Assembly (NCBI RefSeq): GCF_964204865.1
Contig: NC_135250.1
Span: forward strand, 6,262,001 to 6,326,000
Direction of reading: 5' to 3'
Origin: Styela clava
Lineage: Eukaryota
DNA length: 64,000 nucleotides
Position numbers and translations under genes: made by a program
Part shown: piece after piece, positions 8,560 to 57,400 of the stretch
Layout: the number at the start of each line of letters is the position of its first letter
Position numbering within the stretch: the stretch's first letter is position 1
Notes under the pieces: generated by a model
What the model was told of the DNA's origin: nothing
What the model saw: only the letters and a program-made list of their open reading frames with translations
Databases searched by the model: none

Positions 8560-9867
8560 TTTAATTGCTAAGCTATTCACGATAAATGATGAATACATTA
8601 ATAAGACAATGCAAAAACTAAAAATGTTTCCATTGTGCGGAATCCCAAAAAGTAAATGGGAATGAATACTAAAAAGTCGATAGCGATGTCCTGCCTATTG
8701 TCCAGTCCACGCGTGCACGTCCGAATGCTCGTACGCTCGTATCCATCTGTTACGCTAGCGTGGGCGACATCGCGGCTAAGCATAGTTGTTGAATCTTTGT
8801 TACAATGGCTAAGCTTGCTAGCGAGTTATTTCCCGGCTTTCCGCTGTGACTAGGTTTATAAATATAGGTATAGACAGGCGTAACATAACTGTGTTTATCC
8901 AGTAAACGCATCATTCATTTTGTTTATACAATATGCAACACAGTTTTAGTCGGACATGTTTATACCAATGCTGGTCTTTTGTGCAATATTAGCAACAGAT
9001 TTGACGCAGTTTTTGTATAATTGTCAAGTATTTTCTGCCTGGACTACTTTCTACGCTTCAAATGAAACTAACTAAAGCGCTATAATGTGTAAAACATGGA
9101 AACCCCCGAAAACAAAAACTATCAGTTTCGGTGCAGCGTATGTAGCATATAGTGCGCTTAAATTACTCGAGTATCTTAGTCCTACAACATTTGTTTATCT
9201 AAACCTGGCCTAAGATGGCGACCGCAAATACGCGCGGTTTTGGAAAAAGTTCAAATCTGTTTTGAACATTGAAATTCTGTTTTAACGATCACCTTACATG
9301 ATCGTTATTGAAATCAGATCACGATGTTTGTCGTCATCGTTGAATATACTCGATTATCACAGCCTTATTTTCGGTTTATGTTTGGTAAATTCTCAGTTTT
9401 ACTCGTTTTACAAAATACGTAATTAAGCTCTGAGTCGTTATGACTTTGCATATTTTGTTCGTTCGGAAATTTGATTTAGTTATAATATTATAACACATTT
9501 AACAAAACGTTCAAAATTAACTAACTTTTTCCGGTATTACAACTAACGGTATATGTCATGTCAAACATATCGCATTACATTGTTTGTGAGTTTCTTTGCT
9601 AAGATCGTATTACACCATCTCCGCAAGTGGGAGACATTCATTCAAAAAAAATTTGCGGGGAATATCGCTTTGTACCCACTTATACACGATGCTGTCTTGA
9701 TCCGCCCTGCGCCTCTCTGGTCATAAGAAGCTGTCAAAATCCATTGTAGACAAGTACACACTGTTCTATCACTTTCTAACTACTGTTACAGGCAAAATTT
9801 TTACTTAAGTGAATTAACCCATTAATTTTAATTATTCTAGTCCCGATAATCATGTTTAGACTTGCTC

Positions 9868-10195
9868 TTGTTACTTATCGATCTCGATCGGCAAATATGT
9901 TGATAGGTATTTGTCTGTTTGTTTGTTTCACTTTCGTATGTTACGCGATATCTCACGAAAGCGAGGTTGAATCTGCTCCAAATTTTGCATGCATTCATCA
10001 TTCGTGCATTCATTATTCATTCATTCATATCTCGGACCAGAAGCCTATTGATTTTGGATGAATTATGTCGTATAATTAGCGAGTTATTAATTAGTTAGTG
10101 ATGAGACACGCGGTGTCGCTATCGAGTGAAAGCGAAGGAATCGAAACCACAGATCGATAAGTCGGCGGTCTCCGATCGCTATCTAGTTTATTTGT
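9868..10195 (-). mobile_element. Helentron/DINE-1-like non-autonomous element, family B
   Basis: Reverse-orientation homologue of 12747-13056, 37735-38021 and 58311-58682 (shared core AATAGGCTTCTGGTCCGAGATATGA...TTTGGAGCAGATTCAACCTCGCTTTCGTGAGATATCGCG). Confidence 0.7.
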
Positions 10196-10552
10196 TTGTT
10201 TATGTTAAGAGCCCCTGACCGAGAGACGTTTATGGCAATAATGGTGCAAAACTATCTCATATCAGCTGTTTTATATTCATGTCCTTGTTATTATCATACT
10301 GTCCTACTTGGTGTCCTATTTATTAGTGTCGGAGACAGTGCAATGAGGCTCTTTGGTCATGAATTTTTTTGTTAGATGCAGCGGTTACTTTGCGGCATTG
10401 GTTTGCAAATTATAGAGTGTTCAATTCTGCTAATTTAGGCTTGTTAAGATATTTAGGGTTTGTAGTTTAGAGTTATTTAGGTTCCAATAGTTATATATTT
10501 GAGGCTAATTATAATATTTCTTGCTTTGCGTCTTTTAGCTAAATCTAAGTAC

Positions 10553-25200: not shown

Positions 25201-28200
25201 ATTCCAGCAACATTGGCAGCTGTTGTTGCCGGTGCTGCAGTTGCAGCAGGCTTATTAAATGAAAAAGCACCTCCTAGTCCAGTACTTGCCCCTGAAATTT
25301 TTCATACAAAATTTAAGATTAAATTACTAAAAAAAAAGCATGAAACAGAAACCTTTTTGGTTTCTATAACTCAATGATTAATATTCAGATTACAACCAGA
25401 ATGATACGCCCAAAACAATTCAACTATTCAAATCGATTCAGAATAAAATAGTTTCTAAATTCAAGGGATAATTTCACTAAAAAAAATTGATGTTTTCAGT
25501 AAGCGTAAAGACACAAAGCATGAGTGTCATTACGATTAATTAATGCAAACACAGCCAGATGTCACTTAAAATTACTCCAGATAAAGTTACTTTCACATTT
25601 TCATTCGTTAAAAAACAGGATATTAGTGGGAGGAATTACCCAAGGGGGGCTCCATACTTTGGAATTGTATCAGGCTATGCTTGAATGGCCTACTCCTGTA
25701 GTGCCAGGTTAGGGTCTGGCAATAATTTTATTCAGATTTTCCTTATATTAATTCTATTATGAGTTTGGGAACTGTCTGTGGTAGCCAAGTGAATAGGCTT
25801 CCGTCCCTTCACAACTTAAAGTAAAGTAGGCAAACAAAATTAGTTACCTCTATATTGGTACACACACTTCTGGAGCGCCTAAATAGGTATTTATTAATAA
25901 AATCAAAATAAGGAAGAATGAATTTACCTGCATTGCCTGATAATGAAAATGGTTTGCTTCCGCCAGTCAATGTACCCGTTCCACTTAGACCTGAAATGAA
26001 TAAAACAATTTTGATTCAATTAAGCCTTTTGAAAAACATTAGAACAGTGGTACTTGATTTTTTCACAATAAATGACCAGCGAAAATTCCCCCTCAAAAAA
26101 CTAGATGGCTATGTGGAATCAAAATAAGTAAAAGAGAATATACCAATACTTTTATTACAAAAGCCCCTATGTTGTGTACACATTTTTGTGGAATTGCAAA
26201 AATCCACGTCAACTATTAATATCAAGAGGGCCCATAAAGGGAAGGGAGCACTTGTTCAAATATAATATGAACACATAAGGCGAACGATTTTCATATAAAA
26301 GTGTTGAAAGAAAAATTTTGGGTAAAAAATAATGTCACACGGGACTCGAAGTAAAGTGATATCTTAATAGTTAAACATAGTTTGTTTCGGTTTGGTGTTC
26401 GACTACCGATTTTTCATGTGCGATGACGTCATAACAAATTGTTCACCTTGTGGCAGTTCGGCTCTCACACCTTAGTCGCAAAGATTGCCATGCCGGTAAC
26501 ATCGCTCTCTTGTTGAATGGCCAAGAGGCAGTCGAGATGCGTGGTTCGAGTGACGTCATCTCACTCGATGGAGCGCTAGGGAGTTTGAGCACCGAATACC
26601 CGTTCAAATAACACAACATTTTTAGGCTAGAATTTTTTGGGCGGCTACCGAATTGTTCGAATATCGAGTCGTTCGACTACCGAGGTATCACTGTGATTTG
26701 AATGAGAATAAAAGCCTTTTAGCGGCTTTAACTATCAAGTACTGAAAAATTTATTAGTTGCAAAAAAAAAATCTTTTTTTCACAACAGCATCAATTTAGT
26801 ATGACAATCCATATGTATACTTAATGTCCATTAATAGAATTGCTAGTAACGATCTATTACCAAGTAAAATTCAAGACGTTTACTGGTAAACTATCTCACC
26901 CCCAAATGAAGGAGTTGATTGTGACTGTGCAATAGTAGATGCAGCTGGTTGACTGAAAGAAAACCCATTACCAGTACTTGCTGCACCAAGAGCTGTGAAA
27001 TAACATAAACATTAGTTAGAGTCATATGTAATTATACAATGATACAATTCAATACAATATATACTGCATGAAAAAGGGAGGACAAAGAATACCTAGATTT
27101 TTTTGTCATCGTCGGCACGATTGCATGGTGGTAAAAGCATTGACTTTAAAATTTTATCGTTGCAGGTTAAAAATCTCAAATTCAAATACCTTGCCCAGTC
27201 AGAGTGTAATGAATTGGGTAGGTATTAGGCAACATCGTATAAATTAATTAACAAACATTGTATTAATTTTTTTTTCAACCTTTAATAACCCCCCCCCCCC
27301 CTCCAAAAAACCAACCAATAATAACCAACAAGCAGTTTGAAAACAAATAATACATTCAAAACATCCCAACTTCGCAAGAATATATGCAAATGAGAATTAT
27401 GGTTGTGCAGTATAAAATTAAAATCCCAAACAATTTCGCTAACAGGAAGACTTCGCTTCGGAAGATTTATCTCTCTATATAAACACTGCAATAAATCAAC
27501 AAAACTTATATCCACATACCACTTGCACCACCAAATGAAAAACCAGTGCTTTGTGGTTGTGGAGCAGCTGCAGTTCCAAATAATCCAGATGCTGGTTTTG
27601 GTTGTGCTGCAGTACTTGCGCCTGCACCAAAGCCCCCGATAGGAGCACTAGACCCAAACGCTGGAGCTGGAGTGTTAGTACTGACTCCACCAAATGAAAA
27701 ACCAGAAGGAGCAGTTGTCGCAGCTGGTGTGGATCCAAATCCTAAAAGAGTAAAAGTCTTTGTTGACTTCCAATTCAAAAGTACAGGTTGATTCAATAAC
27801 AGAACCCAGGTTTTAACACATCTTCGAGAGACCATAATCATAGATTCCTGAAATTTTTGGGCATAGTCACATACAAACAGAAGTTCAACTGTATCCACAA
27901 TATTTAAGTCAAGCTATCACTGAAATGTTGCCATGCTTAGCTTACTTTATTATAGAAATTATGAAGTTTTTATTCAGAAACTGAAGAAATTCCTGATTGT
28001 CAACAAAACTTAAATTCAAAAATATTCACTAAAATTTCAGTTTTATAAGAAGCCTTTCCATCTTCTTGTCTGCTTTGGAAAATATATCCAATTATGATGG
28101 TGCAAGGAAATGCGGTTTCGGCGAGAGGCTTAGAGCAGTCAAGTCTATGGCAATGTAATGTGAAAAATGCTACAACATAGTGAATTCCATAAGTACTGAA

Positions 28201-29994: not shown

Positions 29995-30800
29995 AAAGCC
30001 TCGATGATTAATTGGATTAAACTATTTTGCCAATTTGATTCTTGTTTTTCACAGACTACGCAAGTTGATCATTTGCGGCATACGAATGCATCAATGCGGC
30101 ATTATATTAATTTGATTCTTGTTTTTCACCTATCTATTCTTGCATAAATCACGCAAATTAACATTTGCAGTATATGATTGCCTCGACGTGGCATTGAATT
30201 AAAATATTCTCGTATTCCGTATACTTCGAAGTTAAACATTCGCGACATATGAATGTATCGATGCCGCATTATATTAGTTTGAATCTTGTTTTTCATCGAT
30301 TTATACTAGTATAAATTACGCAAATTGAACATTTGCGGCATATGAATACATCGATGCGGCATGATATTACATTATTTTGCTAATTTGATTCTTGTTTCTT
30401 GCCGATCTATTATTGTGTAAATTACGCAAGTTGATCATTTGCGGCATATGAATTAAATTATTTTCGTATAAATTAACATTTGTGGCATATGAATGCCTCG
30501 ATGTGGCATTGAATTAAATTATTCTCGTATACCGTAGCTTTCGAAGTTAAACATTTGCGGCATATGAATGTATCGATGGGACATTATATTATTTTGAATC
30601 TTGTTTTTTACCGATCTATACTAGTATAAATTATGCAAACTGAACATTTGCGGCATATGAATACATCGATGTGGCATATTAAGTTATTTTGCTAATTTGA
30701 TCCTCGTTTTTCGCCGATCTATTCTTGTATAAATTACACAAGTTGCACATTTTGCGGCATATGAATGTCTGGTTGCGGCATTAGATTAAATTATTGCTTT
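29995..30800. repeat. Higher-order minisatellite with conserved core CATTTGCGGCATATGAATGYATCGATGYGGCAT
   Basis: Nine cores at ~30070, 30162, 30237, 30330, 30436, 30477, 30552, 30645 and 30748. Spacings of about 75/93/105 bp recur, giving a ~315-bp super-unit. Confidence 0.85.
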
Positions 30801-37366: not shown

Positions 37367-37734
37367 ATGACATATAGGCTACTTTCTGCAAATTCCTTAC
37401 ACTATGAGTGTGCCGGTGGATTATTTTCATAACTTAAACTGAAAGCCAAGACCTTATGCTTCTGGGGCTCAGCTCAGCCACAAGACGGAGCTCTGAATCA
37501 TTACTCAGCCTTGAGCGTTGACATGGCAGGCGACGATGTAGCTGCGGGTTTATACCATTAAGATCCATAAGCGTTTTTTAACGGAGTGTTGTGCGAAGGG
37601 AAAGGTAGTCAAGAAACGTTTTATTAATCCATAAGTTGCGAAAAAATTAATATCGGTAATTCAAAAGGCCACCAAACAACTTGCCACACTAAATAGCATT
37701 GTGACGTATCAATATAGCATAATAACAGATAAAG

Positions 37735-38021
37735 TAAACGAGATAGCAATCGGAGATCGCCGATTTATCGATCTAGTGACGTGTTTCATTTGCTCTGACT
37801 CAATAGCGACACCGTGTGTCCCATCACTAATAAATTATTAACTTACTAATTATACGACATAATTCATTCAAAATCAATAAGCTTCTGGTCCGAGATATGA
37901 TAAATGCACATGCAAAATTTGGAGCAGATCAACCTCGTTCCGTGATATATCGCGAGTGTCTAACAGACAGACAAATAGGCTACCTATCAACATATATTTA
38001 CCGATCGAGATCGATAAGTAA
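37735..38021 (+). mobile_element. Helentron/DINE-1-like element, family B
   Basis: Homologous to 12747-13056 and 58311-58682; ends in ...CCGATCGAGATCGATAAGT. Confidence 0.7.
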
Positions 38022-38879
38022 GAAGCCCAGCAAAGAAGGTTAAAACAAGATATAATAGTGAAAAGGCTCCTTTTCCCAATCTAAATTGATACACGTTGTC
38101 TAACATTATCAGGCCGATTACAATAATGAGTTTTGCCACAATAATGTAAGCCAGCGTTATATGATTGCGTGGTCTGTCTTCTTTGTGCCTAATTTCTGTG
38201 TAGAGTATACCGATATAACAAATTGTTGTTATCATCAAGTACAGACAGAATGAACATCCATTCATGCATACTCAGCTGTGTCTATCATTTCCGTATCTTA
38301 TTATTAGCTTCCACCTAACCTCTTCGTGGCCATATTTGGGTACCTTCAGCTTTTCACACTGATGCATCACAATACAACAAAGTTTTACTGCCTGCATCTG
38401 CCTGAAACAAGCTTTTCTGTACTGTCACTTATGCTAAATTTGACATCATAATACCATTTGAAAGTTAGAAGCGCTTTATTTTACTGGCTAGTCAGTCAAA
38501 TCAATTTTATCGCCCCGCACCATTCAGTTCTTGTCGTGGCAATGCGTGCACTGACTGAGTATGAAGTATCAAATTATATATTCCAACGTCATTTCACTTT
38601 TTTAATTGTATTTTGACTTGTTAACTTAGCGTTGAAATTGATACCGCCACTGCAAATTATTTTAGTAAATGTTATCGTATTTTAAATATGAAACAACTTG
38701 TCGGGGTGCATAAACACGAGCCAGAAGTGTCTTTTGTTATTTCTGGGTTCTTCATATTTGTTAGTGGAGATTTTGCATAAAATATTTATAAAATAATGTA
38801 GATTGTGATATTATGGAAACATTTTTACAGGTTAAATAAATTTATTAATAATAAATGATTTTCTTGAAAAATAATTTTG

Positions 38880-39060: not shown

Positions 39061-39330
39061 TTTAACAAGAGGAGTAAATGGAGTATAGTAAATTGTCGAA
39101 CTTTCAGATACAGAGCTGTGGAATATAGGCAGACAAAAGCGCCAGTGATCCTGTAATCAGTGTTATGTTCCAGTGTTTACTGCAGTACCTTAATCTACGA
39201 CTTACCGGACCAATAATTTAGTTCAGTAATTGGACGCTTCTGATATGAAACAAGACAAGAACAGGCATACAAATTTTGAAGTAACCAGAAGGCCCCAAGG
39301 GAGTGACTCAATCAATAGACTGATAGAGGA

Positions 39331-42300
39331 GGGTCTCCCTAAAACCAGGCACTCGCGAATTCAGGCACCATTTCAGGCACTTTGATATTTTTTTATTTTT
39401 ACAGTACGTCATTGGGATTTCCAATTTACCTGACAAGATAATTAGACTTTAAATAATTTTTGCATCCCTATATTGCAATAAAACAATATTATTTCCGATT
39501 TATTAGGGTATAAATAATTTTTCAATAGTAAAATGTGGCAACATTGATTACAAAATATAGAAAACAGGCACTTGTGAAATTTCAGGCACTTGGTCAAAAC
39601 CTATTTTACAATGTATCTGATTACTCTAAAGCAGAAAATTGAATATAAACACTTTGTATGGTTGAATTTACAACCTTTTGGTAAAATACAATACCGTTTG
39701 TGACTGATGGAGGCGTGTCATATTTCGCAAGTGCCTGATTTTTCATTTTTCTCGGTGACAGTTGCCATATTTTTTCGCAATTATTTTCCTAAATTATTTG
39801 GGTCAGCACTTACTATTCTTTGCTTTCTAACGCCAATTCACTGTTCCACAACAATTTGAGCGTTTTTAGTATTGCAATGAGCAATACCATTTGACAACAT
39901 ATAGTCAACCATCGTACTTTCTGGATTTATTTGAAATTGAATATGAATAATAAAATCTGGCAACCTCAAGCACAAAATACTAAAAATGGGCACTTGTGAA
40001 ATTTCAGGCACTTCGTAAAAACCTATTTCTCGATGTTTTTACTTACTTTGAAGCAGAAAACTAAAATATACACTCTTTTGTATGATTGAAATGACGTCTT
40101 TTTGGTAAAAAACAAGAACGATTGGGACTGGTCATGAGGGGTCAAATTTCGCAAGTGCCTGATTTTTCATTTTTTCCGACAACCGTTGCCATATATTTTC
40201 GCAACAATTTTTCTAGATTATTTGCGTCAGCACTTACTATTCTTTGCTTTCTAACGCAAATTCATTGTTCGACAACAATTTGAGCATTTTTAATATTGCA
40301 ATGAGCAATACCATTTGACAACATATGATCAACCATCGTACTTTCTGGATTTATTTGAAAATTGAATATGAATAATAAAATCTGGCAACCTCAAGCACAA
40401 AATACTAAAACCAGGCACTTGTGAAATTTCAGGCACTTCGTAAAAACCTATTTCTCGGTGTTTTTACTTACTTTGAAGCAGAAAACTAGAATATACACTC
40501 TTTTGTATGATTGAAATGACGTCTTTTTGGTAAAAAACAAGAACGATTGGGACTGGTCATCAGGGGTCAAATTTCGCAAGTGCCTGATTTTTCATTTTTT
40601 CCGACAACCGTTGCCATATATTTTCGCAACAATTTTTCTAGATTATTTGCGTCAGCACTTACTATTCTTTGCTTTCTAACGCAAATTCATTGTTCGACAA
40701 CAATTTGAGCATTTTTAATATTGCAATGAGCAATACCATTTGACAACATATGATCAATCATCGTACTTTCTGGATTTATTTGAAAATTGAATATGAATAA
40801 TAAAATCTGGCAACCTCAAGCACAAAATACTAAAACCAGGCACTCGTGAAATTTCAGGCACTTCGTAAAAACCTATTTCTCGATGTTTATACTTACTTTG
40901 AAGCAGAAAACTAAAATATACACTCTTTTGTATGATTGAAATGACGTCTTTTTTGGTAAAAAAGAAAAACGATTGGGACTTGTGATGAGGGGTCAAATTT
41001 CGCAAGTGCCTGATTTTTCATTTTTTTCGATTACAGTTGCCATATATTTTTGCAATATATTTCATAAAATCATTTTCGTCAGAACTTAGTACTTACTATA
41101 CTTTGCTTTCTCGGTAAAATGTTTTTTAGACAATCCGATGTATATTGAGTGCTATTCTTATCGCTAATTTCAATTCGACGTCTGCCCGAAGGTGGTGCAA
41201 GTAATTATATTTGAAGTGAGTACATACCTCTTCAAAACGCCCAGATGGAATATTGAACAAGTCGGAGTCAACAAAAATTCAATCACATTTGGAACGTTGT
41301 CGCACTGCATCGTCGCCACTCATATACTCTGACATTCCGATGCATGAATTTTGCTTTCTGGAAAATAATAATTGGAGTGTCTGTTAAAGTGCGAAATGTA
41401 TACGGGAGCACGTACAATATCAATGCTTCGTTTGCAAGCGTTGGTATCATTATACATGTGAGAAAGTATCGAAAGCGAAATTGTGGAAGTGTAAAATTTG
41501 TATTCGGTAAGTCGGTGTTGCCAATGTGGGTATTTTCAGGGCGCTCCCGTAGTAGCCTATGTGCTCCAAGATACTATGTTCGGGTTGTGTGCCAACTTTG
41601 TGCACATACTACGGGAGCACCATTTTCTGCACAACCTATTCTGATGCTCATTCGCGACATGAAGAAACTATACGCCCGACATATAAAAGTAGAAAAATAT
41701 ACACAAAACCTTTTCATGTTTAATTTCAGAACTGACATTTAGAATTTTCAATTCTTAGATCTGTGGTTTTACCTAATTGCAAGATACGTAAATCATATCA
41801 TGTCAAAATTGAAAAAATAGTAAGGATTTTCATTGGATACTCAATATTTCTAATAATTTTCAAACTGAAAGCTTCGATTAGTGTTCACTCATACACTTCC
41901 CTTGTGAAGTTGTGTTTTTAATGTTTTATCTCCTTAATAAATTTAAATTCAAATTTATATCCCCAATTACTGATGAAGAAAAATCTATAATCGAGAGTTT
42001 AATACGGCTTCTGTGACATTAAAAACAATTACTGTTTTACGTTTTTATATATTTGTAACTTTTTGAATAACGCAAAAACATTTGTTGACTGACTACTGGC
42101 GTGTTGAATATTGAAGGATTTTTATTGTAATATTCGTTTAACGATGCTTTTAAGCCTAACTTTGGGCATATCAGCTACCTGATGTCATTCGCGGAGCGAA
42201 TTTTGTTTAGGTGACATTGCCATCTCGTATTTACCATCCTGTAGCCATTCTTCTTATTTAGGAACTACGTGTTTTACAGTTAGCTGTTACAGCATGAAAT

Positions 42301-44815
42301 AATGTACAAATAATTCTACGTAAACTATCCATGAAAAGATATTACAGTCAGATCTTCAGGTTGTAAAGAATATTATACAACAGCAACAGCAAGTGATTGA
42401 ATATCTTTATTGTAGCCGTGGTTGAACACCGCTGGTTGTCAATATAGATTTTGCACAGGCTTTTATACATTTTGTGAACGGTAAATTATGTTCTATTAGG
42501 GGATAATGTGACTTGGATACGTTTTATAAAAAATTCTATACGACATAAGTCAATTGTTTCTGTTATGTAGTTTATATGAAGTCATAGGCCAAATTACATT
42601 ATTAAAATCGTCGTCCGATAACAATAATTAAAACTGGAATTTTGAACTAATATTGCCAGAAGACGAATTAGGTTCTTTATAACAATGCGATTGTTGCTAC
42701 CTGGGTAATATATTACGTCGAAATGTTTATAACAAATTAGAAGAAGTTTTGAACCAATTTCAAGGGTTCCGAACATTACTATAAAGATGTAGTCTGAATA
42801 ACTAATATTCTTTACAGATCTGTCAAATTTAAACCCGTATTTAAATAATACATATGTCATACTTTTCAATTAATAAAAATAAACAACACAATGTCATTCA
42901 AACTTTACAATATTCAAATAGTTTTGCAAAAGCGTGATTGGTTTAATTAAATACCGATTTCCGGATGTAGATACTGATGTTAAAAGTTTAATTCCATTTA
43001 TGCTAAGTGAAGCTCTCATACAAACATTGACTTTTATAAAATAATGCAATAGGGAAACAACATATAAAAAAAAAGAAAAAAATTGTAGAGATATGGCAAC
43101 TACCATTGACAAAACCAAAAAATCAGGCACTTGCTAAATTTGCCACATTCCTACCAGTGACAGTTCTTCTTGTTTTGAACAATAAAAATACCAAATTCAG
43201 TCATACAAAATATGTATATTTGGATTTTCGGCTTTAAAGTAATCAAAAACATTGGGAAATGGTTTTTCACAAAGTGCCTGAAATTTCACAAGTGCCTGAT
43301 TTTAGTATTTTGTGCTTGCGGTTGCCAGATTTTATCATTCCTATTCAATTTCAAATAAATCCAAAAAGAACGATGGTTATCTATATGTTGTCAAATGATA
43401 TTGCTCATTGCATTATTAAAAACGCTGAAATTGTTGTATAACTAGGAATTTCCTTTAAAAAGCAATGATTAGTAAGTTCTGACGAAAAAGATTTTATGAA
43501 AAGTATTGCAAAAATATATGGCAACTGTAATCGGAAAAAAGGAAAATTCAGGCACTTGCGAAATTTGACCCCTCATCACAAGTCCCAATCGTTTTTCTTT
43601 TTTACCAAAAAAGACGTCATTTCAATCATACAAAAGAGTGTATATTTTAGTTTTCTGCTTCAAAGTAAATATAAACATCGAGAAATAGGTTTTTACGAAG
43701 TGCCTGAAATTTCACAAGTGCCTGGTTTTAGTATTTTGTGCTTGAGGTTGCCAGATTTTATAATTCATATTCAATTTCAAATAAATCCAGAAAGTACGAT
43801 GGTTGACCATATGTTGTCAAATGGTATTGCTCATTGCAATATTAAAAACGCTCAAATTGTTGTGGAACAATGAATTTGCGTTAGAAAGCAAAGAATAGTA
43901 AGTGCTGACGCAAATAATCTAGAAAAATTGTTGCGAAAATATATGGCAACTGTTATCGAAAAAAATGAAAAATCAGGCACTTGCGAAATTTGACCCCTCA
44001 TGACCAGTCCTAATCGTTCTTGTTTTTTACCAAAAAGACGTCATTTCAATTATACAAAAGAGTGTATATTTTAGTTTTCTGCTTCAAAGTAAGTAAAAAC
44101 ATCGAGGAATAGGTTTTTACGAAGTGCCTGAAATTTCACGAGTGCCTGGTTTTAGTATTTTGTGCTTGAGGTTGCCAGATTTTATTATTCATATTCAATT
44201 TCAAATAAATCCAGAAAGTACGATGGTTGACCATATGTTGTCAAATGGTATTGCTCATTGCAATATTAAAAACGCTCAAATTGTTGTGAAACAATGAATT
44301 TGCGTTAGAAAGCAAAGAATAGCAAGTGCTGACGCAAATAATTCAAGGAAATAATTGCGAAAAAATATGGCAATTGTCACCGAGAAAAATGAAAAATCAG
44401 GCACTTGCGAAATATGACACGTCTCCATCAGTCACAAACGGTATTGTATTTTACCAAAGTGTTGCAAATTCAACCATACAAAGTGTATATATTTAATTTT
44501 CTGTTTTAGAGTAATCAGATACATTGTAAAATAGGTTTTGACCAAGTGCCTGAAATTTCACAAGTGCCTGATTTCTATATTTTGTAATTAATGTTGCCAC
44601 ATTTTACTATTCGAAAATTATTTATACCCTAATAAATTGAAAATAATATTGTTTTATTGCAATATAGGGATGCAAAAAATTGTTTAAAGTCTAATTATCT
44701 TGTCAGGTAAATTGGAAATCCCAATGACGACGGTAAAAATAAAAAATATCAAAGTGCCTGAAATGGTGCCTGAAAAAGTGCCTGAATTCGCAAGTGCCTG
44801 GTTTTAGGGAGACCC
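39331..44815. mobile_element. Foldback/Mutator-type non-autonomous DNA transposon, 5,485 bp, with ~1.75-kb modular inverted arms
   Basis: Ends GGGTCTCCCTAAAACCAGGCACT ... AGTGCCTGGTTTTAGGGAGACCC. Perfect 9-bp TSD GATAGAGGA at 39322-39330 and 44816-44824. Arms ~39331-41100 and ~43075-44815 are made of ~424-bp tandem units rich in AGGCACT. The ~2-kb core has no transposase ORF. Confidence 0.95.
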
Positions 44816-45433
44816 GATAGAGGAACGCAAAAACACTAAATCCTGGAATTACTGAATTAAAGCTTCAATTAATGTCCGAATGTACCGGTAGTAGACTATT
44901 ATGACTTAAAACATTTAAAATAAACATAGGTCTGTAGGTGTGTGTGCAATATTAATGTGTACATTCAAGTGTATTCCAGTATTCTGGCATTCCTCATTGT
45001 AAATCTAAAAATTTAAGACACCTAAACACTTTTCTATCTATTTATCTTTTTTCACTCCATTTTTTTGATGTTAAAGCGCAATCATAGTAAAGACCGCAGA
45101 ATATGACAATCCTACAATCATTGAATTGAAGTGTTTCGTAGTTCTGTTTCTGGTTCGTGTTTCTGGCATTCATAGAGAAAACACCATTTCTACCATTTTC
45201 TCAAAGTTTCAATATACGATACATTTTGAAACTTCTCTGGTTTTAATGTTTACTGGTTAATGATCTTTCCCGTTGATTTTAAACAAATATTTGTCAAACG
45301 AAAATTCCGCCATGTCAAAATCTATATATCAAACAAGAACAACCAAAAGAAATGATAAATTATGCAACTTGAAAGTATATAAATTTCTTTTCACAGTTTA
45401 GAATAAATTACATCTGAACTTAAAAATAGCAAG

Positions 45434-48400
45434 ATGTCTTCAATAAATCCAAAAAGGATGAAAGTAGCAGAGTTGAAAAAGGAATTGGAGAGTCGTAGCA
45501 TCTCTGTCACAAAAAATATGAAAAAGGCTGATCTTGTAGCTTTGCTTCTTTCTGCAGTTGAAAGTGAGTATACGATTTGTATTGAATCATATTTTGTATT
45601 ATCATATAATATATATAAAAGTAAATCGTTATTTTCTTTTTTTGTCGAAGGCGAAACAGGACAAGAAAGAGAATTTTCATCGTCAGAAGCGCCAGACGAT
45701 TCTGCACAGAGTGAAGTTGAAGGGGGAGATTCAATATTAGAGGATGAAGTATGTTATAATATATATAGTTTTAAAGTTATTTTTTATCCACAATCAGTTA
45801 TAATAATATTTTTTATCATAATATTTTTTTGTCAGTAGTTCGACACAACATTATGGTAACATTTAACAATTCAACCTCGATCGGCCTAATTTAAAACATT
45901 GGTTATTTGCTAGGCAATCTGGATTCATTATCAGTTGCTCTTTATAATATTGAGAGAAAATGCAAATTTTTGGCTCATTTTGCAGCCTGCGGAAGAGCCA
46001 CCTCCAGAAGTGAGTGAACCGAATCAAGAGGAAGCAGGCGGAGAAGAGTTTGAATCTTTTTGTACAGCAAACGATGAAACAGAACAAGTGCAGGAACCAA
46101 CAGAGGATGTTGCTGAACCGACGCCAGTTGAACAACAGGAACCTCAAGAAGAGGAGAAAAAAGAAATTGAACAACAGATCGAAGAACCTCCTCAGCCTGA
46201 GGAAGCCGAAACGGAATCAAAACAAGAAATGGAAACTGCGGAGCCAGTTGCAGAACCTGCTGTTAGTATAAATTTTTCAAAGTTAGTCACTGTTGAATGT
46301 ATTTGTAAACCCTCTGTGTCTCTTTTCATATTTCAACTTTGTGTCCCCTTTTATATTTTGTTTCAATCCAGTGGACCTTCTGGGTAAAGCGTTAGACTTG
46401 AGTATGTTGGCATGGTAAGTTATAAATCTCTGTTGAAATCTCATGCCTGCGCTTAACCCAGGGTGTAAGAAATTAAGTAGGCAATGGCAAATTGGGCAAG
46501 TTCCAGTCATTCAAAAATATAATAGCTCTTGCCTAGCAGTGACTGCTCGTCCAGAACCTTGTTCATAGTGCTACTGCAGTCATCAATAGAAAACCAAATA
46601 TTCGAATAATGTCAATGATACGTTGGTTCAATGTATTGTTTTTTCATTATTAAAAAGATAAACAAAACACTTTTTATTCTTAAATAGGATCTTCTGCTCT
46701 ATTGTAAAAATTAGGTTCTCAGTATGAAAATTAAAAACTTTTCTTACTTGGATGACAATTATATCCAATGTTATTGAGCATGCCGGTCCTAGTCTCTGAT
46801 ATAAAATTGAATTCGGAATCTACTCGATATCATTAAAATTACCTGTTTGTAGAAAAAGGCTACATTTGTCCAGTTGACATAGTTTCTTTCATTATTAATT
46901 ATATATTCGAATTTTTTTATGACCCAATTCGAATCATCTAATTTAGGATTGAATAGTTTGGCGTGATACGCTATGCTTATAACGTCCTGTTATACTGACT
47001 GTTTTCATTTATTGTTCGTATATAGCAGACTGAAGAACAAGAAGAACAGAAACCCGCAGAAGAAGTTAGTGACGATGCTGCAGCTACAGATCAAACTGCA
47101 GACGTAAAACAAGAAGAAGGTGAACTATTGAGAATTTTGTAAAACTATTTTTCGATAAAATTTATAAAATTCATATTCATGATGCATTTATTGAATTATT
47201 AACATAGAACAAGCTCCAAAAATTGAGCAAGAAGAGTTCTCAACTCCACGAGATGTGCAAGATGTGGAAATGTCTGAAAATGTGGAAGATGCAGAAAAGA
47301 AGAGTGAGAGTGCAGAAACGAAAACTGAAGAATCTGGTGAAAGTAAGATTGAAATATAATTTAGAATTATGGGGAATTACTGGAAAAAAGCATACAATAC
47401 TGTGGATCGATGGTTTTCGAACTTTTCAAGCCGCGCTCCCTTTTTAGAATTTGTCAAGAATTAGAATTTGTTGTAAATAATAAAATAAATGAAATGTTTT
47501 AAACACAAATAAGGCCTTCAAAATCCAGTCTAACAAATATTTTTAATCAGCTTCACGCTCCCTCAAAAAAATTTTTCTGTGAAATATTTCATTGATGTGT
47601 CAATTTTTTTTACTATAACTTGAATTTTTGCTTTTTTTCAATACAGCTGGTGAAAAAACAGATGAGAAACAAGCAGAAGAAAATGGTGATGAAAAACAAG
47701 AAAGTAAAGGTAATTTGACAAATACTCAAATATTTTTTTTCTTAAGATTTGTCATTAAAACGTTAATTTTCATTATTAAGTTAACCTGTTTCAGACGCTC
47801 AATCGAGCCCAATTTTGAATACATTTTTATTAATGTCATACGACCCCCAAAATTTACCCAATATACAATAATTATATACCATTGGAAAGGTATTTTAGAG
47901 TACTATACGCTAGATGTCACTGGAGGACCGTAAACTAAAACACCTCTTTCAAGAGGTCTCTCGTAACGTCAAAAAATAACAAAAATATTTACACTCTCTC
48001 ATTCGATCAGCTGTTGGTCGTCTATCGCTATTGTAAAGCTGAAATGTGACTCTACAGTTGACTGCACATTGGTTTTCTCTTTCATATGATACTAAACGCT
48101 TTTCCATAGCGCGCGTTGTTCAAACGTTTTGGAAATTTTCCGTTTGAGAAGTCACCACATCGAATCAGGCCAGGCTAAGCTTGATAGATCGATCGGTTGT
48201 TTGTTTGTGCTTTATCGCGTTGAAAGCTTTTGTGAGTCATAATAAAACATTTATTATGAATCATAAAAGCTTATAATCGTCACACAAGGAGAATTTGCGA
48301 GATAAAACGCCTAACTTTTTTTCGGTGAGGCAGCTGCGATCAAACGACTCGATATTTTTATAACTTCCTGACGTTGTGAGATGTCCACTCTCCTATGTTA

Positions 48401-51400
48401 TGTAGCATATAAAATGACCTTCAAAATAAGACCTTATCATACTAGCTTTTGTTATTGGTTTGCGCGCAACGCCAAGGTTTATGGAATCATTTTCTTGTTG
48501 TGCGACGTTTTTATATCGCAGCGGGAAGTACACGCGTGATATGTAAGCGAAATTTTATCACTTCTAAATGTCATATAAGGTTCATTCTCATATCGTTGTG
48601 TGGGGAATAAGATTTCCTTTCAAGCAAGACCATAACAAACATTCCAGACCTCATGGTATACACACAGCATTGCAAAACGTCTGAAACGTCGCGCATGCGT
48701 CAAAACGGGAGGATTAGGTTAATAATATTTCGAAAAATTCGCTCAGATTCAAAATTTTTTGATTGTTTTGCAATGCTACATAACCGATGAATAAAGTAAA
48801 TATACTTTTTTTATTATTCTTATTCAGAATCAAAAGATGATTATCATGATCATGCCAGAAAACGTCGTCACGATGATAGATATGACAGACATAGTCGCTG
48901 GGAAGACAGGTATATTTTACTTTTCAATTTCTTTAAAATGTGCAAAAAGGTTGGCTGGAAATGCGATATTCGGTATAATATGGTATTAGCTGTTGACAAA
49001 TTTTTTATGAAATGACATTTTTATTCTGTCTGTTGATCTATATAATAATAGTTCATAGTAATTTTTGACCTATTTATTCACTTTCTCACTCTGATATATT
49101 CTCTTTTTTTGTTAGATTTGCTCCACCAGAAGAAGAACCAGAAGAGGAATTTGATGACAATCTTGTGGTGTTAGATCTCTACAACAGCGATCTGAATTTC
49201 AAAGTGAATCGAGACAGAACTGGTGGTCAACCTCTAACAATGGAAGGTTTTGCTTATCTCTGGGGTGGTGCTCGTGCCACTTATGGAGTAAAAAGCGGGA
49301 AAATCTGCTATGAATGCAAGGTATGTTACTTGATTAGAAACATTTTACTTCTGCTCTAATATATGGTGAATAAATGATAGGTAACCTCAATGATTGAAAT
49401 ATGAGAAACGCACGAATCCATAATTCCCAAGCCATTTAAAAATCGCCTCCTAACTTCGGGTCGTCAAAATGTTAGACTCTTGATTCCAGGTTGATGGAAA
49501 TTTGACTCCAGTCAGGAAAACCAAAAACATAAACATATGCAAGCTCTCCTCTTATTGTCTGTTGGGAACTAAATGCTTTTATGAGTTTCTTTTGGCGTTA
49601 TGTGGCTGGCCATAGCTTTGATTAGAGCTCAGGCTTCTTGAGTGAACTTGCTTTGAAGATAAAATATATATGAATTTTGACGGATCCAAAAAAGTAAAAT
49701 TCAAATTCAAATTATTGGCAAGAATTTACTCTAATGGACGTTTATACCACAATTATTCATATTTAAATTTAAAGCAACTCTTTAATATAGATTTTAGAGG
49801 AAGAGGCAGTGAAGCATTTGCCATCTGACGAACCCCATCCAAGAGTTGTGCGAGTTGGTTGGTCGGCTGAAAAAAGCGGAATTCAACTTGGTGAGGAACC
49901 TCTATCGTTTGGATATGGAGGAACAGGCAAATCTTCCGTCGATTGTAACTTCAATGACTTTGGAGAAACTTTTCATGAAGGAGATGTGATTGGATGTTAT
50001 GTTGTGAGTAAATTTTTTCTCTCTTTGGAAACGTGTCTCTTATAATAATGTTTAGACTGTTTCTTGGTTTTGTGATTCTCTGAGCTGAATGCTAATTGGT
50101 TCTGAGTGTCTTTTGTACTTCTTAATGAATACTTTCTGAAACTTTGAATTCTTTGTGCTTTACTGAGTGTGAGTGCTTTTGTACATCTTTATAAGTTAAT
50201 TTTAAACCAGAGTTTTTTGTGCTCTTTAGAGTGAGTAGTTTTTGTGCTGAGTGAGTTCTTTCTGAGTAACTTTTGTTTGGGATTTTAATAAGTGAGCGCT
50301 TTGTACTCTCTAACTGAGTTTGTGCAACTGAATAGGTGCTTTAGTACTTCAGAGTGATTACATTTTGTGCAGAGCGAGAAGTTTTTATAATTAAGTTTTG
50401 TTTAGGACTTTAATTGAGTGCTCTCGGCCTACATTATAACTACTATTTGAGTAGTGTTTTGACAAATATCTTTCAATATTTTTATCAGAACTTTGAGCAA
50501 GAAGACAAAGTTGAAATCTCTTATACCAAGAATGGGAATTATCTCGGTGTTGCATTCACTGAAGAAAAAGCAAAATTAGAAGACCCTTTGTTTCCCCATG
50601 TTTTGTGCAAAAACACCAGCGTGGAAATGAACTTCGGTCAAAAGGTGAGGATTTCATTTTGATGGAAGGCCTGTTCAGGCTGTAGTGTCAGAGTCTGTTT
50701 TTGGCCGGTTTTATTGGTATTGATAATAATTGGTTGATATCCGAGCTCAGGTCAAATTTTTGGCTACGGTATAGAGGTTAGAAGACAAAATTTTTGATAG
50801 AAACTGTTAAAATTAAGTTGACTATGCATTTTTGACAGGTAATTAAAAAAATGACTGCACAACACACACCTTCATAAGTTTGAGTTCAAAATTTTCCGTA
50901 CCTGTAGTTTGGAGCTGGAATCGTTTTTAAAATCCACTCATAGTCTTTTGTCAGATTTTTGTTTCATTAAGTTTTTTCGATTCCTCAACCTTGTATAGCT
51001 TAACCTTATAGTTGAGCAATAGAAAAGTTATTCTCGATAAGTTCTATTTCTGACTTATCACAAAATTTAAATTTTAGGAGGCACCGTTCTTCAGTCATCC
51101 GGAAGAACTCACAGACTATACTATGATTGGTAGTTTACCATTAGAAGACAGAGTTCGTGCACAAAAAGCACCAGAAGCCAAAAAGGATTGTGAGGTAACA
51201 TAAACCAAGTATTCTTGAATAGCCGAAAACTTTAGAATTCATTCGTTTATAAATATTTTAAGATACTACAAATGTTCGTTAATTTTAAAAAATTTTACAT
51301 GATTTATGATTTTCTTGAATGTATCGAATTATGTTTTTTTTGGTACTCGTGAGTATGTGTACCAGGTTAGGGTTAGGCCATAGTTTTATTCAGATTTTCC

Positions 51401-54400
51401 TTATTTTAGTTCCATTACCAGTTCGGGGACTGTCTATGTTAGCCAAGTGAGTATACCCCTGCCCATAGGTTTTAGTCCCTTTACACAACTTTATGTGAAG
51501 TGGGCGAACAAAATTTAGTTACCTCCATATTGGTACACATACTTCTTAGAGTGCTTTTCTTTCGCTTGATCTCTGCCTTCAAATTGTTTATTCTTCAAAT
51601 TTTTTTTAATTAACATAGTTTAATAATATACAGCAGTTAAAAATAACGCATGCCTTTAAATTAGAACATTTCATAATTATATCCATTCAGTTGACTTCGA
51701 TTTCTTTATTTATTGCTAAATTTTTTTTGGGGGTAGAAATTTTTGTATTACTATTCAGGTCCTAATGATGTGTGGACTACCAGGAGCCGGTAAAACATAT
51801 TACGCGGTGCAGAAGCTCAAAGAAAACCCAGACAAGAAATACAACGTCCTGGGAACAAATGCTATCATGGAGAAAATGAAGGTAATTTCATAATCATAAC
51901 AAATCAATCTACATGTAGGCTACACTTGTACAATAAGACTCGCATCGCATACATCAAAGTTTTTGTGACCAAAATTTCCTTCACTTGAAGAGTTAGCTTG
52001 GATTGGTGTCAAAATTCTTTTAACCTGGTGCCGGTGTCTCTATTTAAATGGCCCACCGTTAATTAAGGAAAATGAAAATGCCATAGTCACACACCCATTA
52101 CCATATTCACTTATCTCAAACTTCTTTGTAACTCAGGTCATGGGTGTCGCTCGCAAACGAAATTACGCAGGAAGATGGGAAATACTCATTCAAAACGCTA
52201 CACACTGCCTCAATCGTTTGCTTCAGCTTGCATGCAGGAAACGAAGAAACTACATCTTGGATCAGGTAATGAAACGAAAAACCAAGTATAGTAGGAATAA
52301 TATTATGAAATTGTAATCGATATGCGCAATTTGAAAAGAACCATTTTTTTTTTAAATATTTTTGATTTAATCATGAATCCAGAATATTGTTTTAATTTAG
52401 CAAATTTTGTTGAATTTTCTTATTTATATCTGGCCGCGCTGAATCAAACGAGGGTTACTGTTCAAATGAGTTGAAAGGAAATATTTTTTTTGCATATAAA
52501 ATATAGTCTGAATCGTGCACGACCGTTTATGATGTAGCTTCTTCTGGGTTTAAGACAAGCCAATGTATTATTCAGCTTATCTTTGTTATTAGATGACTTC
52601 CTTGTTTATATTCAAAACAATAACTAATCTACAATGTTTATGATTGAGAATAATTTTTTTGAGGTCAAAGAGGTATACGTTTGCTTTTAAAGTTTGCTTA
52701 AAAAGATTTTGTGTTTTTGAGGGCTATCTACATATTGTGGTACTGTATAACTGTAATTGCCAAATTGCAAATAGGAACTTGTTTAAAGTGGTGTTGAATA
52801 TTGGCAAATGGCAACGCTTTGCTAATTTTTAGGTGCCGATTTAATCTGATAGTATTAGATCAAATGTATTGACATTTTTCCTGATTCCTATATTATATAC
52901 GAAGAATAAATCGTAAAAATTTGAAAAAAAAAAACAATTGAGAAACTTCCTAAATGCAGAATAATTTAAAGTAGTTAATCATAAAGTAGTAAAATCATTA
53001 AGTTTGCTATCTCTATGTCTCATAAAAATAATAAAAATTGTTATCATACTGTATCGTACATATGGAAATTTTTGATCTGAAAGCTTTAATATTCTTAATG
53101 TTTGTTCTATGATTAATTTGATTCTTGATAGTGTTTTTATACGTCTGGAGTAAACAATATAACTTATGTGTACTCGTACTTCTAAAAATGTTAACGAATC
53201 TGATTCGTTTCATTTTTTATTTTAAAGGATATTCTTATGATTCATTATGAGACAACACTTGCAAATATGTCCAATTCGGGGATAAGAAATACTTTGATAA
53301 CAATTTTTGGTCACGTAGTTGCCATACAGAATTTCATGGCTTATCCCTATATATAGAAAATGGTCTTTGTTTTAAAGCTGCAGTAAATATAATGCATTTG
53401 TAATCTTACTTATTTTCCACAATTCAATCTTAGCTTCAAATTATGATATAATTTGTAGTTTTTACAAAATATGTAAGTTCACCAGGAAGTTTGGAAAATA
53501 CTGAATCTTATAGATGGTGATTTATTCATTTAATAGATTAGTTTCTTTTTCTGTTTGTGAATAAGAAGTAGTACGAAGTAATTTTCATGAATTGGCTTTA
53601 ACAAAGTAGAAATAATTTTATTTATCAGTTTTAATATATGTTGCTTTCACTACTTTTGTTTTGTATTATTCTATGCAATATTCTGGATTCGTGAAAATAA
53701 AAAAAATGGAAATTCAATTTTTTTCTTGTCTCAATATCAATTAGAAAATTACTGATTTTATTTTGGTTCTTTTCATAATGTACTTATCGATAACAATACT
53801 TAACACAGCTTCAGAGAACGGTAAGTATTTCCTAACCATATACACATTTGTCTGATAACCATATGAATTTTGTATACTCTACAGATATATTGAGATAAAA
53901 TGCAAAAAAAACTGTTAACTAATCCGATTCCTTGCATTTTTTCCCCATGTATTGCTTTGCTCAAACCACACGATAACTTTACGTGGTGGTGTACGATGTC
54001 ATGTGATGCATCCTTACAATCAACAATGAATGAATGAAAATAGACAAATGTGTATCCGTCGGCCCAGAGACGGAAAATGCGTCCGTTTGAGGGCTTTCAG
54101 CGCAAGGCTATTGTTATTGTGCCGAGTGATGAAGAATATAAGCAGCGTTTTGAAAAACGCACACAGGATGAAGGGAAGGAAGTACCTGATATGGCCGTTC
54201 TTGAAATGAAAGGTATCGTAACCGTCAGACTTCACGTCTCGATGGGTACTATTAGTTGTCTTATAATATACGGCCTTATTGTCTAACTAACAGTTTGGGT
54301 ATAATATTTTTTTTGTACGAAATTAACTTTTTTTTCCTTTTTTTTTTCTTGTCTCCAGCTAACTTTTCTCTCCCCGAGAAAGGAAACTTGTTCGACGAAG

Positions 54401-57400
54401 TAATCTTTACCGAGCTGGAGAGAGAAGAAGCGGAAAAACTTGTCGAAAAATACAGAGAAGATGGACGAAAGAATGGTCCACCTCCTGAAAAAAGATCCAG
54501 AAGTATGGATTTTTTTGTCGGCTGTCTGGATACTATTTACGATAATTGAAAATGAAGATATTTGTAAAATGTGGTTGTTTTTTATTCAGCGCTTGAGCGC
54601 CTTCTACTTGTACAAGTAGTGACTGCTTCCTGCTGTCGTGAATATAGTATTATCAAATATTTTTGAAAAACTTCTGAGAACAAATAACAGGTGAAGCCGC
54701 GGGCCACACCTTTATTTAACAGACTTTCTAGTAGTTACTGGTACAAAAATTTTGGGTATTGATCTTCTGACATGTTGTTCGCTTTGCTCAGGTGTAACGC
54801 AAAAGAATTTGAATTTCTCGCACATATTAGATTAAACTAATTTAAAAACTCATTTGGCTGGCCTCACACCATATTATTGGCACTACTCTGTGACCTACAC
54901 AATTTTTCCTTGTGGGCTACATTTGGCTCGCGGGTCGCAGGTTGAACACCCCTGATTTACAGTATTCTCTTATATTTTAGTTGAACTACACTTTCTAGCT
55001 GTTCTTATAACATATTTCTCCATATAGATGGTGACAACAGGAGCAGAGGACCCGGTGGGTGGCGTCAAAGAGACAACTATGGACCACCCATGCCATACGG
55101 AAATAGGGGTGGTTGGGGAAGATACGGAGGAGGGGGTGGGGGCCCAATGGGGTACGGCAGAGGAGGCGGAGGAGGTGGTTTCGGGGGTGGATTCAGAGGT
55201 AGAGGTGGAGGCTATGGAGGAAGAGGGGGTTATGGAAACAGAGGATACGATCAGGGAAGAGGTAAGTAGTATCTATAGTCAAACCAAATTTTGTGATATT
55301 TTTATAGTATTCAATATGTTTATGGGGCACTCCTGTGATATGTGTACCAAGTTAGGGTTAGGCCATAATTTTATTCCGATTTTTCTTATTTTAGTTCTAT
55401 TGAGTTCAGGAACTGTTTGTGTTAGCCAAGTGAATACACCCTCTGCCAATACGTTTCAGTCACTTTATACAACTCGAGGTAAAGTAGGCAAACAAAATTA
55501 GTTACCTCCATATTGGCCATGTTTTGTTCTTGGCAACATAATTGCTATTGGTAGTGGAGGTGTTTATTCTGTTCAGTTAGGTTTGGTAAATTACCGATAC
55601 TTGTCTTGCCAGTTTGATGTCACTACCCATGTGTTACCAATCTTGCTTCATTTAAACTAAAATTATTGACGGAGTCATCTGATAAGATGGTTTGATTATA
55701 TAAACAAACCACAACCTTTAGTTGGTGATTAGGTTCTATCTAGCACTTGTATGGGAACTACATTCTACAGTTTCAACATGCCAATTTTAATACTTGCCAG
55801 GTGGTAAAGCGCCATATTAAAATCTGAGAACTATGGTTTGTTTGTCAATCTAAAATGCTTGTCAACGACTCAATGTTTCCTCTGGATTAAGGATGGGCAA
55901 ATTACGGCCCACTGAAGTGTTTCGTCCGGCCCACTTGTGTCTGCTAAAACTATGACTAAAGTTTTTATGAATATATATTTCAATGAAAACATTGATGGGA
56001 ATAACAAATTGTTGGCAAAAATATTCTCTACACATAACCCTAACCTAAATATAATGTGCAAATAAGCCTCATATACCTCAAACTCACCCATCCGAATTAT
56101 TAATGTCATTGTAAAACTTTAACTTCTCTGCCAGGAACAGTGCTCGGGACTAGCGTTTAGACGTGCAAATTACCTTTTTCATTCATAATTTCCTATTGGG
56201 TTAAGAACTTATGGCCCAGTGACCAAGTCTAGTATCTGTAAGTGGCCCACTAAAGAAATTAATTGCACACCCATGTTCTAGATTACAACCGTGGAGGTGG
56301 ACGAAGAGACAATCGTGGCGGAAGTGGTGGCGGCAGTCGTGACGGAGCCAAAAGAGGTAAAAGCAATAATGTAACAAGAATTTATTTGCATAAGTTATGT
56401 GAGATGCTTGCATCACATCAACACAGATGTTTCTAACTACAACAACAAGAGAGTAGTAAATTTATGTCGACTTTGTGTCTAAAATGCAAATTTCACTTTA
56501 AAACAAACAGCAATTTTGAATTGTTCAAATTTCATTATTATGCAATTTTTATTTCGTTCACAGTAAATCTATGGAAAACCATACAATGTAGCTAGAATCG
56601 ATTCAAACATTTTTACATATTTATTTTATATTTGTCATTTCATTATTTGTAGTCTCTCATTTTGTGTTTCGCTAATACAACAGGTGGATGGCAACAGAGT
56701 CGTGGCGGATATGGAGGTGGACGCGGTGGCGGAAGTGGTGATATGTATGGAGGATACAATAAGTATGTTTTTATAATATGATTTAATTGAATAAATCTTC
56801 CATCTATTTTAATTGTTATTGTTCAGTATTGTTCCAATCACTCTCAAATTTGATGGTGTTTATGCCTTACCTAAATTCAGTTTTTCGTGATGAATATAAT
56901 ACCTTGACGACGAATTTCACACTTCTCAAAATAGGATTCTAGAGAAGCAGAAAAATATTCAGAGCGGCAGAATAGTTACCATTTGGCGTTGTCTATGCAT
57001 TATGTTTTATCCCGAATGAAACGCTGTTAATGTTTCTAATAATTTCCATTTTCAGGCACAATCAAGGAAGAGGAGGAAGTAGTAGTAGTAGTAGTAGTAG
57101 CAGTACCGGCAGTGGTGGAGGAGGTTATCGTAATGGAGGCGGAAGTGGTGGATACCAGGGAAGACAAGGCAGTGGTGGACAGAATAAATATCAAGGAAAT
57201 AATGCCTCATCTAACACTCATCCTTCAGCTCAGGTATGATGTAGTATTCAACCTCTGCGGCATCAAAGCTTCTTTTTACATCGGACCTGGGCTTCTACTT
57301 CATAGGCAATGGTTTTATTGGTATGACCATTACCATTTTAGCCATATTTCTTGCCACCATCCAGTTAGTTGAACTCTAGAAGTGGTTCAGTGACATGGGA

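Follow-up and report, generated by a model that had tools for sequence, protein, structure and literature searches.

What kind of mobile element carries long inverted arms with no long open reading frame (ORF) between them, and what moves it? The question is raised by a 64,000-nucleotide stretch of the ascidian Styela clava (assembly GCF_964204865.1, contig NC_135250.1, positions 6,262,001 to 6,326,000; G000:C1:6262001-6326000 in our notation for the 377-Mb genome). We call this stretch the window, and bare positions refer to it. It holds an element of 5,485 bp (39331-44815) flanked by 9-bp target-site duplications (TSDs). The element is very probably a non-autonomous, internally deleted foldback-type Mutator transposon, similar to Rehavkus and FB-NOF, which has kept both arms and a broken PHD-finger tail of its transposase and was probably mobilised, by cut-and-paste, by a related enzyme acting in trans.

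Architecture of the element and its copies

An earlier note on this DNA had described a 5.5-kb foldback element with a perfect 9-bp TSD, its ~1.75-kb arms being built of units of ~424 bp. This description is borne out and its coordinates all hold, with the second left unit marker being a sequence variant. The 9-bp terminal motif GGGTCTCCC lies at 39331 and, in reverse, at 44815. The two inverted arms of ~1.75 kb (39331 to ~41111 and ~43073 to 44815) are 90.9% identical over 1,732 columns (blastn), rising to 96% in the best 913 nt, and have tandem periods of 425 (3.6 copies) and 424 (3.3 copies). Paired CAGGCACTT motifs are observed in the left arm at 39565/39583, 40412/40430 and 40837/40855, with a mirror set in the right arm; at the second left pair (39987/40005), the copy at 39987 is the variant GGGCACTT. 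An opposed AGTGCCT lies ~150 bp inward of the paired motifs. The arm interiors are not mirror images, and the innermost units are ~25% different.

The 22-nt terminus has 65 exact matches in the genome (0 for the reversed control), and a looser pattern has 79. Because of this recurrence, and because short-read contigs of sample S1 (possibly the assembly's own source) reach or cross both junctions, the element is not an assembly artefact. The family comprises about 30 copies. Thirty-two paired ends gave 24 perfect 9-bp TSDs, one perfect 8-bp TSD and seven cases without a perfect TSD, so the further genomic copies with 9-bp TSDs for which the note had proposed a search do exist. Base preference in the TSDs is weak, without a strong consensus (C1 in 11/24, A4 in 13/24, G9 in 13/24). 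The ~2-kb core has at least 24 near-full genome matches at 90-100% identity, which is a lower bound because 40 of 398 candidates were scored.

By motif count in 26 copies, the arms contain 1-7 units, a count blurred by motif mutations and insertions, and the two arms are equal in 8 of the 26 (rho 0.19, p 0.35). Unit number varies independently between the arms; unequal crossing-over or slippage may have changed it. Left arms are mostly nearest to other left arms (21 copies scored; L053 and L057 excluded). The window's left arm is 0.5% from that of copy L047 and 4.6% from its own right arm. Since left arms are closest to the left arms of other copies, arm divergence is older than the insertion, and the 4.6% reflects the inheritance of each arm from a parent copy. 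We rejected arm-to-arm divergence as an insertion clock. In one clade (L055, L068, L070) left and right arms are homogenised, 0.5-1.4% apart, which suggests conversion between arms. Twenty-three aligned cores differ by 3.4% on average. The closest pair, L068 and L070 at 0.09%, represents the most recent jump observed, and the window's nearest sibling is L047 at 1.1%. The insertion had been called young. The close sibling and the perfect TSD fit that description, which is qualified by the mean difference between family cores and by the inherited 4.6% between the element's own arms.

Several copies carry nested insertions (L155:1185-6858, L067:2782-4914, L038, L033-34, L035-36 and L049-50). They consist of a satellite, a 711-aa hAT ORF, further elements with inverted repeats, and a long terminal repeat (LTR) element that carries an integrase and an ORF resembling glycoprotein B. 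The long ORFs found next to single termini were considered as cargo and rejected, since they are host genes or hAT/LTR insertions in their own right, and a GGATCCCCCAAAACAG repeat similar to the terminus proved to be part of a different high-copy repeat. No satellites seeded by the units were seen among the 100 listed of 157 motif matches.

An element-free allele was found at the site of the element. Contigs from two samples of one study, S1 and S2, run from 39189 directly into 44909 apart from 22 other letters in between. This allele lacks the element, both TSDs, 132 bp further left and 84 bp further right, with GTACC near both sides. Where the earlier note had looked for an empty allele with a single TSD copy, this is a deletion allele, perhaps left by excision, and no clean empty site. 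S1 also yields filled-site junction contigs. Among the joints listed for runs X16 and X10, which have little flank cover, none crosses the element.

AGGCACT, in either orientation, is present 28 times in the 3,524 bp of arms versus twice in the remaining 60,476 bp of the window. The outer, middle and inner unit classes are 14-30% apart, and the 27-nt paired and 16-nt opposed blocks are invariant in five class consensuses. Within the unit, palindromy does not exceed that of shuffles (42 versus 30 ± 6, maximum 60). The conservation of AGGCACT and its occurrence in a sister family (below) support, without proving, the earlier proposal that it binds the transposase, a role suggested by the biochemistry of Muta1.

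The transposase relic and its possible suppliers

The core consensus has no long ORF, but the interior is not wholly non-coding. The earlier note overlooked a relic in 41142-41510, where one frame (41142-41507) reads as a PHD finger behind in-frame stops (QCFVCKRWYHYTC...WKCKIC). It matches P0002, a protein of the sister family, at 31% (tblastn, E 1.6e-10) and at 33% in a genome-wide search (E 1.6e-8), and its PHD C/H pattern aligns with the sister C-terminus. A genome search with the relic returned the family copies and two distant loci at 32%, which are the sister foldback family. All 22 near-full family matches to the relic have the TAA stop. Because in-frame stops are common to the copies, the founder was already dead before multiplying. 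The spacer from stop to arm is ~1.55 kb in the window element and 1,547 bp in the sister. From these comparisons, the window copy is a deletion running from the left arm's inner end to the end of the Ulp1 domain. This derivative, with a broken transposase tail as its sole gene remnant, is non-autonomous, as had been claimed. The 161-aa ORF at 41257-41742 was discarded (no Pfam match; off-frame from the PHD relic). No captured host-gene fragments of the Pack-MULE kind were found in the core, which consists of transposase tail and non-coding DNA; the host ORFs of L061-L065 are not inside any complete element.

The sister foldback element is 9,089 bp long, with a 9-bp TSD and ~359-bp units, and 63 of its termini are present in the genome. 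Its gene encodes P0001 (DNA-binding region, DDE, SWIM) and P0002 (Ulp1, PHD; PF02902, E 6.5e-14). The DDE-CxxH-W residues are conserved in an alignment of 33 proteins (P0001, 31 of the 32 database relatives found, and P0037): D282 in 33/33, D347 in 31/33, C367 in 32/33, H370 in 31/33, W378 in 31/33 and E461 in 27/33 (five gaps). The relatives carry MULE (Mutator-like element), CG-1, SWIM and Ulp1 domains. The predicted model of P0001 (predicted local distance difference test 84.3) best matches the Hermes and ISCth4 transposases, with modest E-values of 1e-5 to 1e-4. The sister copy on contig C16 has a single 8-bp deletion after SWIM and retains a 647-codon open frame with all catalytic residues; the gene of the C4 copy has two single-base insertions and one stop. 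A decayed, colinear copy at G000:C4:13.488 Mb combines CAGGCAC-type ends (72-84% identical to the window family), a gene for a DDE transposase and a 3' stretch that resembles the core at 75%. An older lineage with window-type ends encoded a separate transposase, whose identity to that of the sister is 32-65% depending on the segment.

Could the MULE fragment merely have been captured by an element that a P-superfamily (Galileo-like) or hAT transposase moves? P-superfamily elements such as Galileo have 7-8 bp TSDs and a THAP P transposase. Here the TSD is 9 bp in 24 of the 25 perfect cases, the relic is of MULE type, and both its position and the length of the spacer agree with the MULE sister. 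On the other side, P transposases can occur with foldback arms (PMC3169594), and two copies (L067, L070) have hAT ORFs within them or alongside; these ORFs appear to be separate insertions. Together with the TSD lengths, the decayed MULE gene between CAGGCAC ends on C4 largely refutes this explanation, which we consider extremely improbable, and the earlier note's choice of Foldback/Mutator over P/Galileo stands.

For the deleted Mutator element, a mechanism can be outlined from Muta1. The N-terminal DNA-binding domain of the transposase would bind the AGGCACT blocks, and a larger number of units would make binding and excision stronger. Cuts would fall at the GGGTCTCCC ends, and staggered insertion over 9 bp would give the TSD. 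The note had expected an autonomous partner elsewhere; the assembly offers the sister family, whose genes are nearly complete, together with older relatives in decay, and no intact transposase of the family itself. The lack of an intact family gene means that the parent is lost, or is absent from the assembled haplotype, or that the sister acts in trans. The supplier would most likely be the family's own autonomous parent, absent from the haplotype or lost.

The next candidate would be the sister family, by cross-mobilisation. The first 70 bp are 79% identical (56/71 columns), AGGCACT lies at equal offset, and the C16 gene is open from the DNA-binding domain through DDE and SWIM. However, the sister ends begin GGGACGGACTAAAAGTAGGCAC... 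and the terminal 9 bp differ (GGGACGGAC versus GGGTCTCCC), whereas Muta1 needs its own terminal motif (PMC5499845). Both sister genes are frameshifted, and the older lineage with window-type ends had a transposase of its own. We regard cross-mobilisation as possible though rather unlikely.

Several observations weigh against a deleted Mutator element moved in trans. No intact family transposase turned up in the assembly when it was queried with the relic, with the DDE and the tail of the sister and with the C4 DNA, so mobilisation in trans is a deduction. Seven of the 32 paired ends have no perfect TSD, and a clean empty allele with one GATAGAGGA is not among the listings from six sequencing runs. 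Pfam alone gave no MULE assignment on P0001, and the Pfam PHD match on the relic is sub-threshold (E 0.81). Identity between the relic and the tail of the sister is just ~32%, and the sister unit has only AGGCACT in common with the window unit (score 26 versus 24 ± 3 for shuffles). Finally, the Rehavkus/FB-NOF-type label would follow from layout, with Repbase Rehavkus and Drosophila NOF compared by description only.

A Pfam MULE search of the genome gave 82 matches, with a profile that misses the window-element lineage. We inspected 30 short and 20 longer loci; no MULE gene between window-type arms was seen in them, and other foldback MULEs were. An intact 1,013-aa relative on C6 was not accepted as the partner, because its identity is ~26%, its element has units of 72 bp and it shows no clear NNxxES glutamate. 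The 72-bp-unit foldback (G000 C6:23.733-23.748 Mb and C8:5.468-5.481 Mb; L119, L198-L200) has two divergently oriented MULE genes. One encodes this intact 1,013-aa Ulp1-PHD protein, in which the catalytic glutamate appears to be missing, and the other is a DDE-SWIM gene that is shorter and frameshifted. At least three further foldback MULE families have long ORFs (L101-L107, L112-L118, L120). Their units are of 166 bp (OTU-MULE, 992 aa), 29 bp (PHD-OTU-MULE, up to 975 aa) and 32 bp (FLYWCH-MULE, ~450 aa). Ulp1-like ORFs (~24% to P0002) are also observed in inverted pairs with a spacing of 7-19 kb, an arrangement that would arise if each arm of another element encoded one.

The features are collected in the table below. 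Elsewhere in the window, a ~300-bp repeat of very high copy number with a 3' hairpin, which we take to be Helitron/DINE-like, is present at 9867-10200, 12740-13062, 37724-38025 and 58300-58688. A second dispersed repeat of ~200 bp lies at 21877-22083, 25691-25885, 51303-51546, 55290-55516 and 57861-58080, and a degenerate local tandem array at 30038-30795.

Table 1. Features of the window element, the adjoining gene and the Ulp1-like pairs
Feature	Position	Strand	Basis
Left TSD GATAGAGGA	39322..39330	.	terminal sequence inspection, TSD scoring
Left arm (5' side of lost transposase)	39331..41111	+	self-alignment, tandem-repeat period, motif mapping
Left arm: three AGGCAC repeats after terminal motif GGGTCTCCC, then ~190-bp spacer	39346-39382		
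Left arm: full ~424-bp units	39524-39945, 39946-40370, 40371-40795		
Left arm: partial unit	40796-41111		
Transposase tail relic (Ulp1 end, linker, PHD finger), ~125 decayed codons	41142..41510	+	tblastn to sister P0002
Parental 3' region, non-coding, ~1.55 kb	41511..43072	+	spacer-length match to sister
3' region of core: hairpin-like short repeat	41540-41621		
3' region of core: older dispersed repeat fragment	~42418-42816		
Right arm	43073..44815	-	self-alignment, tandem-repeat period, motif mapping
Right arm: partial divergent inner unit	~43118-43296		
Right arm: three full units, then spacer	~43300-44568		
Right arm: four AGGCAC repeats, then terminal motif	44753-44800		
Right TSD GATAGAGGA	44816..44824	.	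terminal sequence inspection, TSD scoring
Host gene start, SAP domain; ATG 619 bp past element end	45434..45600	+	Pfam SAP E 1.6e-5
Ulp1-like inverted pairs (G000)	C5:18272517/18279260; C8:15522270/15530123; C5:6408175/6427627; C17:12057433/12065179		

Comparison with known foldback systems

The 9-bp TSDs fall in the Mutator range of 8-11 bp, where 9 bp is typical, and the long terminal inverted repeats (TIRs) start with G. The DDE domain with (C/D)xxH and W is found in sister P0001 and in the decayed C4 gene and is deleted from the window copy. Rehavkus elements have an Ulp1 protease domain C-terminal to the DDE domain in Repbase descriptions. Ulp1 is found in P0002, PHD is seen by its C/H pattern (Pfam sub-threshold, E 0.81 for the relic and 0.018 for P0037), and the subterminal tandem repeats are of variable number. 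The long modular inverted arms of variable length are those of a Foldback. Drosophila FB and FB-NOF have similar arms and mostly non-coding copies; FB makes a 9-bp TSD and has subrepeats of tens of bp, compared with 424 bp in the window family. A foldback element has reportedly been described in Ciona too, by Simmen and Bird in 2000.

The Rehavkus layout in PMC6446971 and PMC12581902 fits the window family, with the difference that PMC6446971 gives arthropod and annelid hosts and TIRs of 26-400 bp, against an ascidian host, ~1-3 kb arms and ~424-bp units here. No named Rehavkus or NOF sequence was among the homologue matches (32, 41 and 0), and a homologue search with P0037 gave no matches. 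For P0037, the related S. clava protein of 1,013 aa, the best Atlas cluster bears the automatic name '120.7 kDa protein in NOF-FB transposable element' (score 0.94); the cluster has Ulp1 in 45% and PHD in 34% and is commonest in Chordata. The NOF label applies to P0037, which is ~26% identical to the sister, while P0001 itself matched unnamed MULE/SWIM clusters.

Muta1 of Aedes aegypti, a type-2 foldback MULE, has the terminal motif GGGTCTACCC (compare GGGTCTCCC here), subterminal repeats, 8-9 bp TSDs and DDE with CxxH and W, and its non-autonomous copies have unequal repeat numbers as in the present family (PMC5499845). More subterminal repeats bind more Muta1 transposase and give more frequent excision; hairpins form on the flanking DNA, and the terminal motif is required (PMC5499845). 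It differs in its 145-bp TIR and 12-bp repeats, and an Ulp1-PHD tail goes unmentioned in the available part of PMC5499845. Tm1 of Meloidogyne is alike in its foldback arms of variable repeat number, 9-bp TSDs and ~93% arm identity; it differs in a FLYWCH Phantom-type transposase and 14-bp repeats. Tetris of Drosophila virilis has foldback arms of variable repeat number with ~220-bp units, which seeded satellites, and its transposase is given as unknown (PMC4079207). The claim that the units are unusually large for a Foldback therefore needs tempering by the ~359-bp units of the sister and those of Tetris.

This kind of element is not new to chordates, because MULE-type proteins with a C-terminal PHD are already on record from Ciona (PMC1702500) and the NOF-FB-named cluster has chordate members. 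We found no description of the window family in the literature within reach, which lies outside subscription papers, Repbase Reports and Dfam, and the main text of the S. clava genome paper contains neither 'MULE' nor 'foldback'. The family may be listed in the supplementary repeat libraries of PMC3169594, PMC4079207, PMC13359780, PMC7540406 or PMC3698922.

Insertion next to gene starts

Of 58 3-kb flanks of 29 elements, 17 have ATG-led ORFs of at least 150 aa that point outward and 3 have such ORFs pointing inward (sign test, 15 versus 1 discordant flanks, p 0.0005), with gene starts called from ORFs and standing copies only. The 44 control flanks (11 regions) gave 3 outward and 1 inward (Fisher p 0.005). 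At other ORF thresholds the Fisher p is 0.05 (100 aa), 0.008 (130 aa) and 0.02 (200 aa). A Pfam scan covered 72 of the 76 listed flank ORFs, with four window ORFs scanned in part separately. Host domains point outward in nine flanks (LRR, glutaredoxin, WD40, OST3/6, AAA, Nse4, Med19, FA2H, RRM) and mobile-element domains in three; all three inward-pointing Pfam matches are mobile elements. The 35 control ORFs (two duplicates dropped) matched a dynein exon, a VPS13 interior and a reverse transcriptase; the VPS13 gene, in control region L260, has >7 kb of coding sequence that is apparently uninterrupted. Beside the window element itself, the SAP-domain gene is presumably hnRNP U-like, as its downstream SPRY-type exons near 49069-50045 suggest. 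A PDB sequence search with the SAP exon gave no match.

Placement upstream of genes is the expected Mutator habit, because maize Mu is strongly targeted to transcription start sites (TSSs), also in de novo insertions (PMC7337890). The bias might instead reflect copy survival or gene-dense DNA, given that standing copies, 11 control regions and ORF-based starts underlie it and that the Fisher p ranges from 0.005 to 0.05 by threshold. The orientation test is internal, however, and selection is expected to purge, not enrich, 4-6 kb insertions at housekeeping promoters. With the de novo TSS targeting of Mu, this makes the survival explanation unlikely.

Truncated older family ends also adjoin host ORFs on their 5' side, and the majority of these ORFs are long and without interruption (L061:301-917, L065:301-590, L152, L156, L157 and L063). 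At L061 the arm end lies 63 bp before the ATG of a DUS1-like gene, followed by a metallophosphoesterase; ORFs behind other truncated ends encode an RRM protein, NudC, SLC52 and a 1,987-aa XMAP215/CKAP5. Promoter replacement or tolerated insertion in trans-spliced leaders is possible. A bolder idea, which we consider quite improbable, is that a Rehavkus-type chordate transposon uses its PHD finger, as an H3K4me3 reader, to target housekeeping promoters and evades SUMO-dependent silencing through Ulp1, its truncated arms having taken the place of the promoters of essential ascidian genes (e.g., L061). If the PHD finger did the targeting, it would name the factor that recruits Mutator transposase to transcription starts, described as unidentified in PMC7337890.

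The window element is a well-preserved case of a transposon type that was already known, here from a new group of hosts, and its arm units are unusually long. The two sister families, with AGGCACT in common, provide a test system for end recognition and cross-mobilisation in large-unit foldbacks. Given the gene-start bias, the 4-6 kb insertions probably act as regulatory alleles of housekeeping genes in this invasive ascidian.

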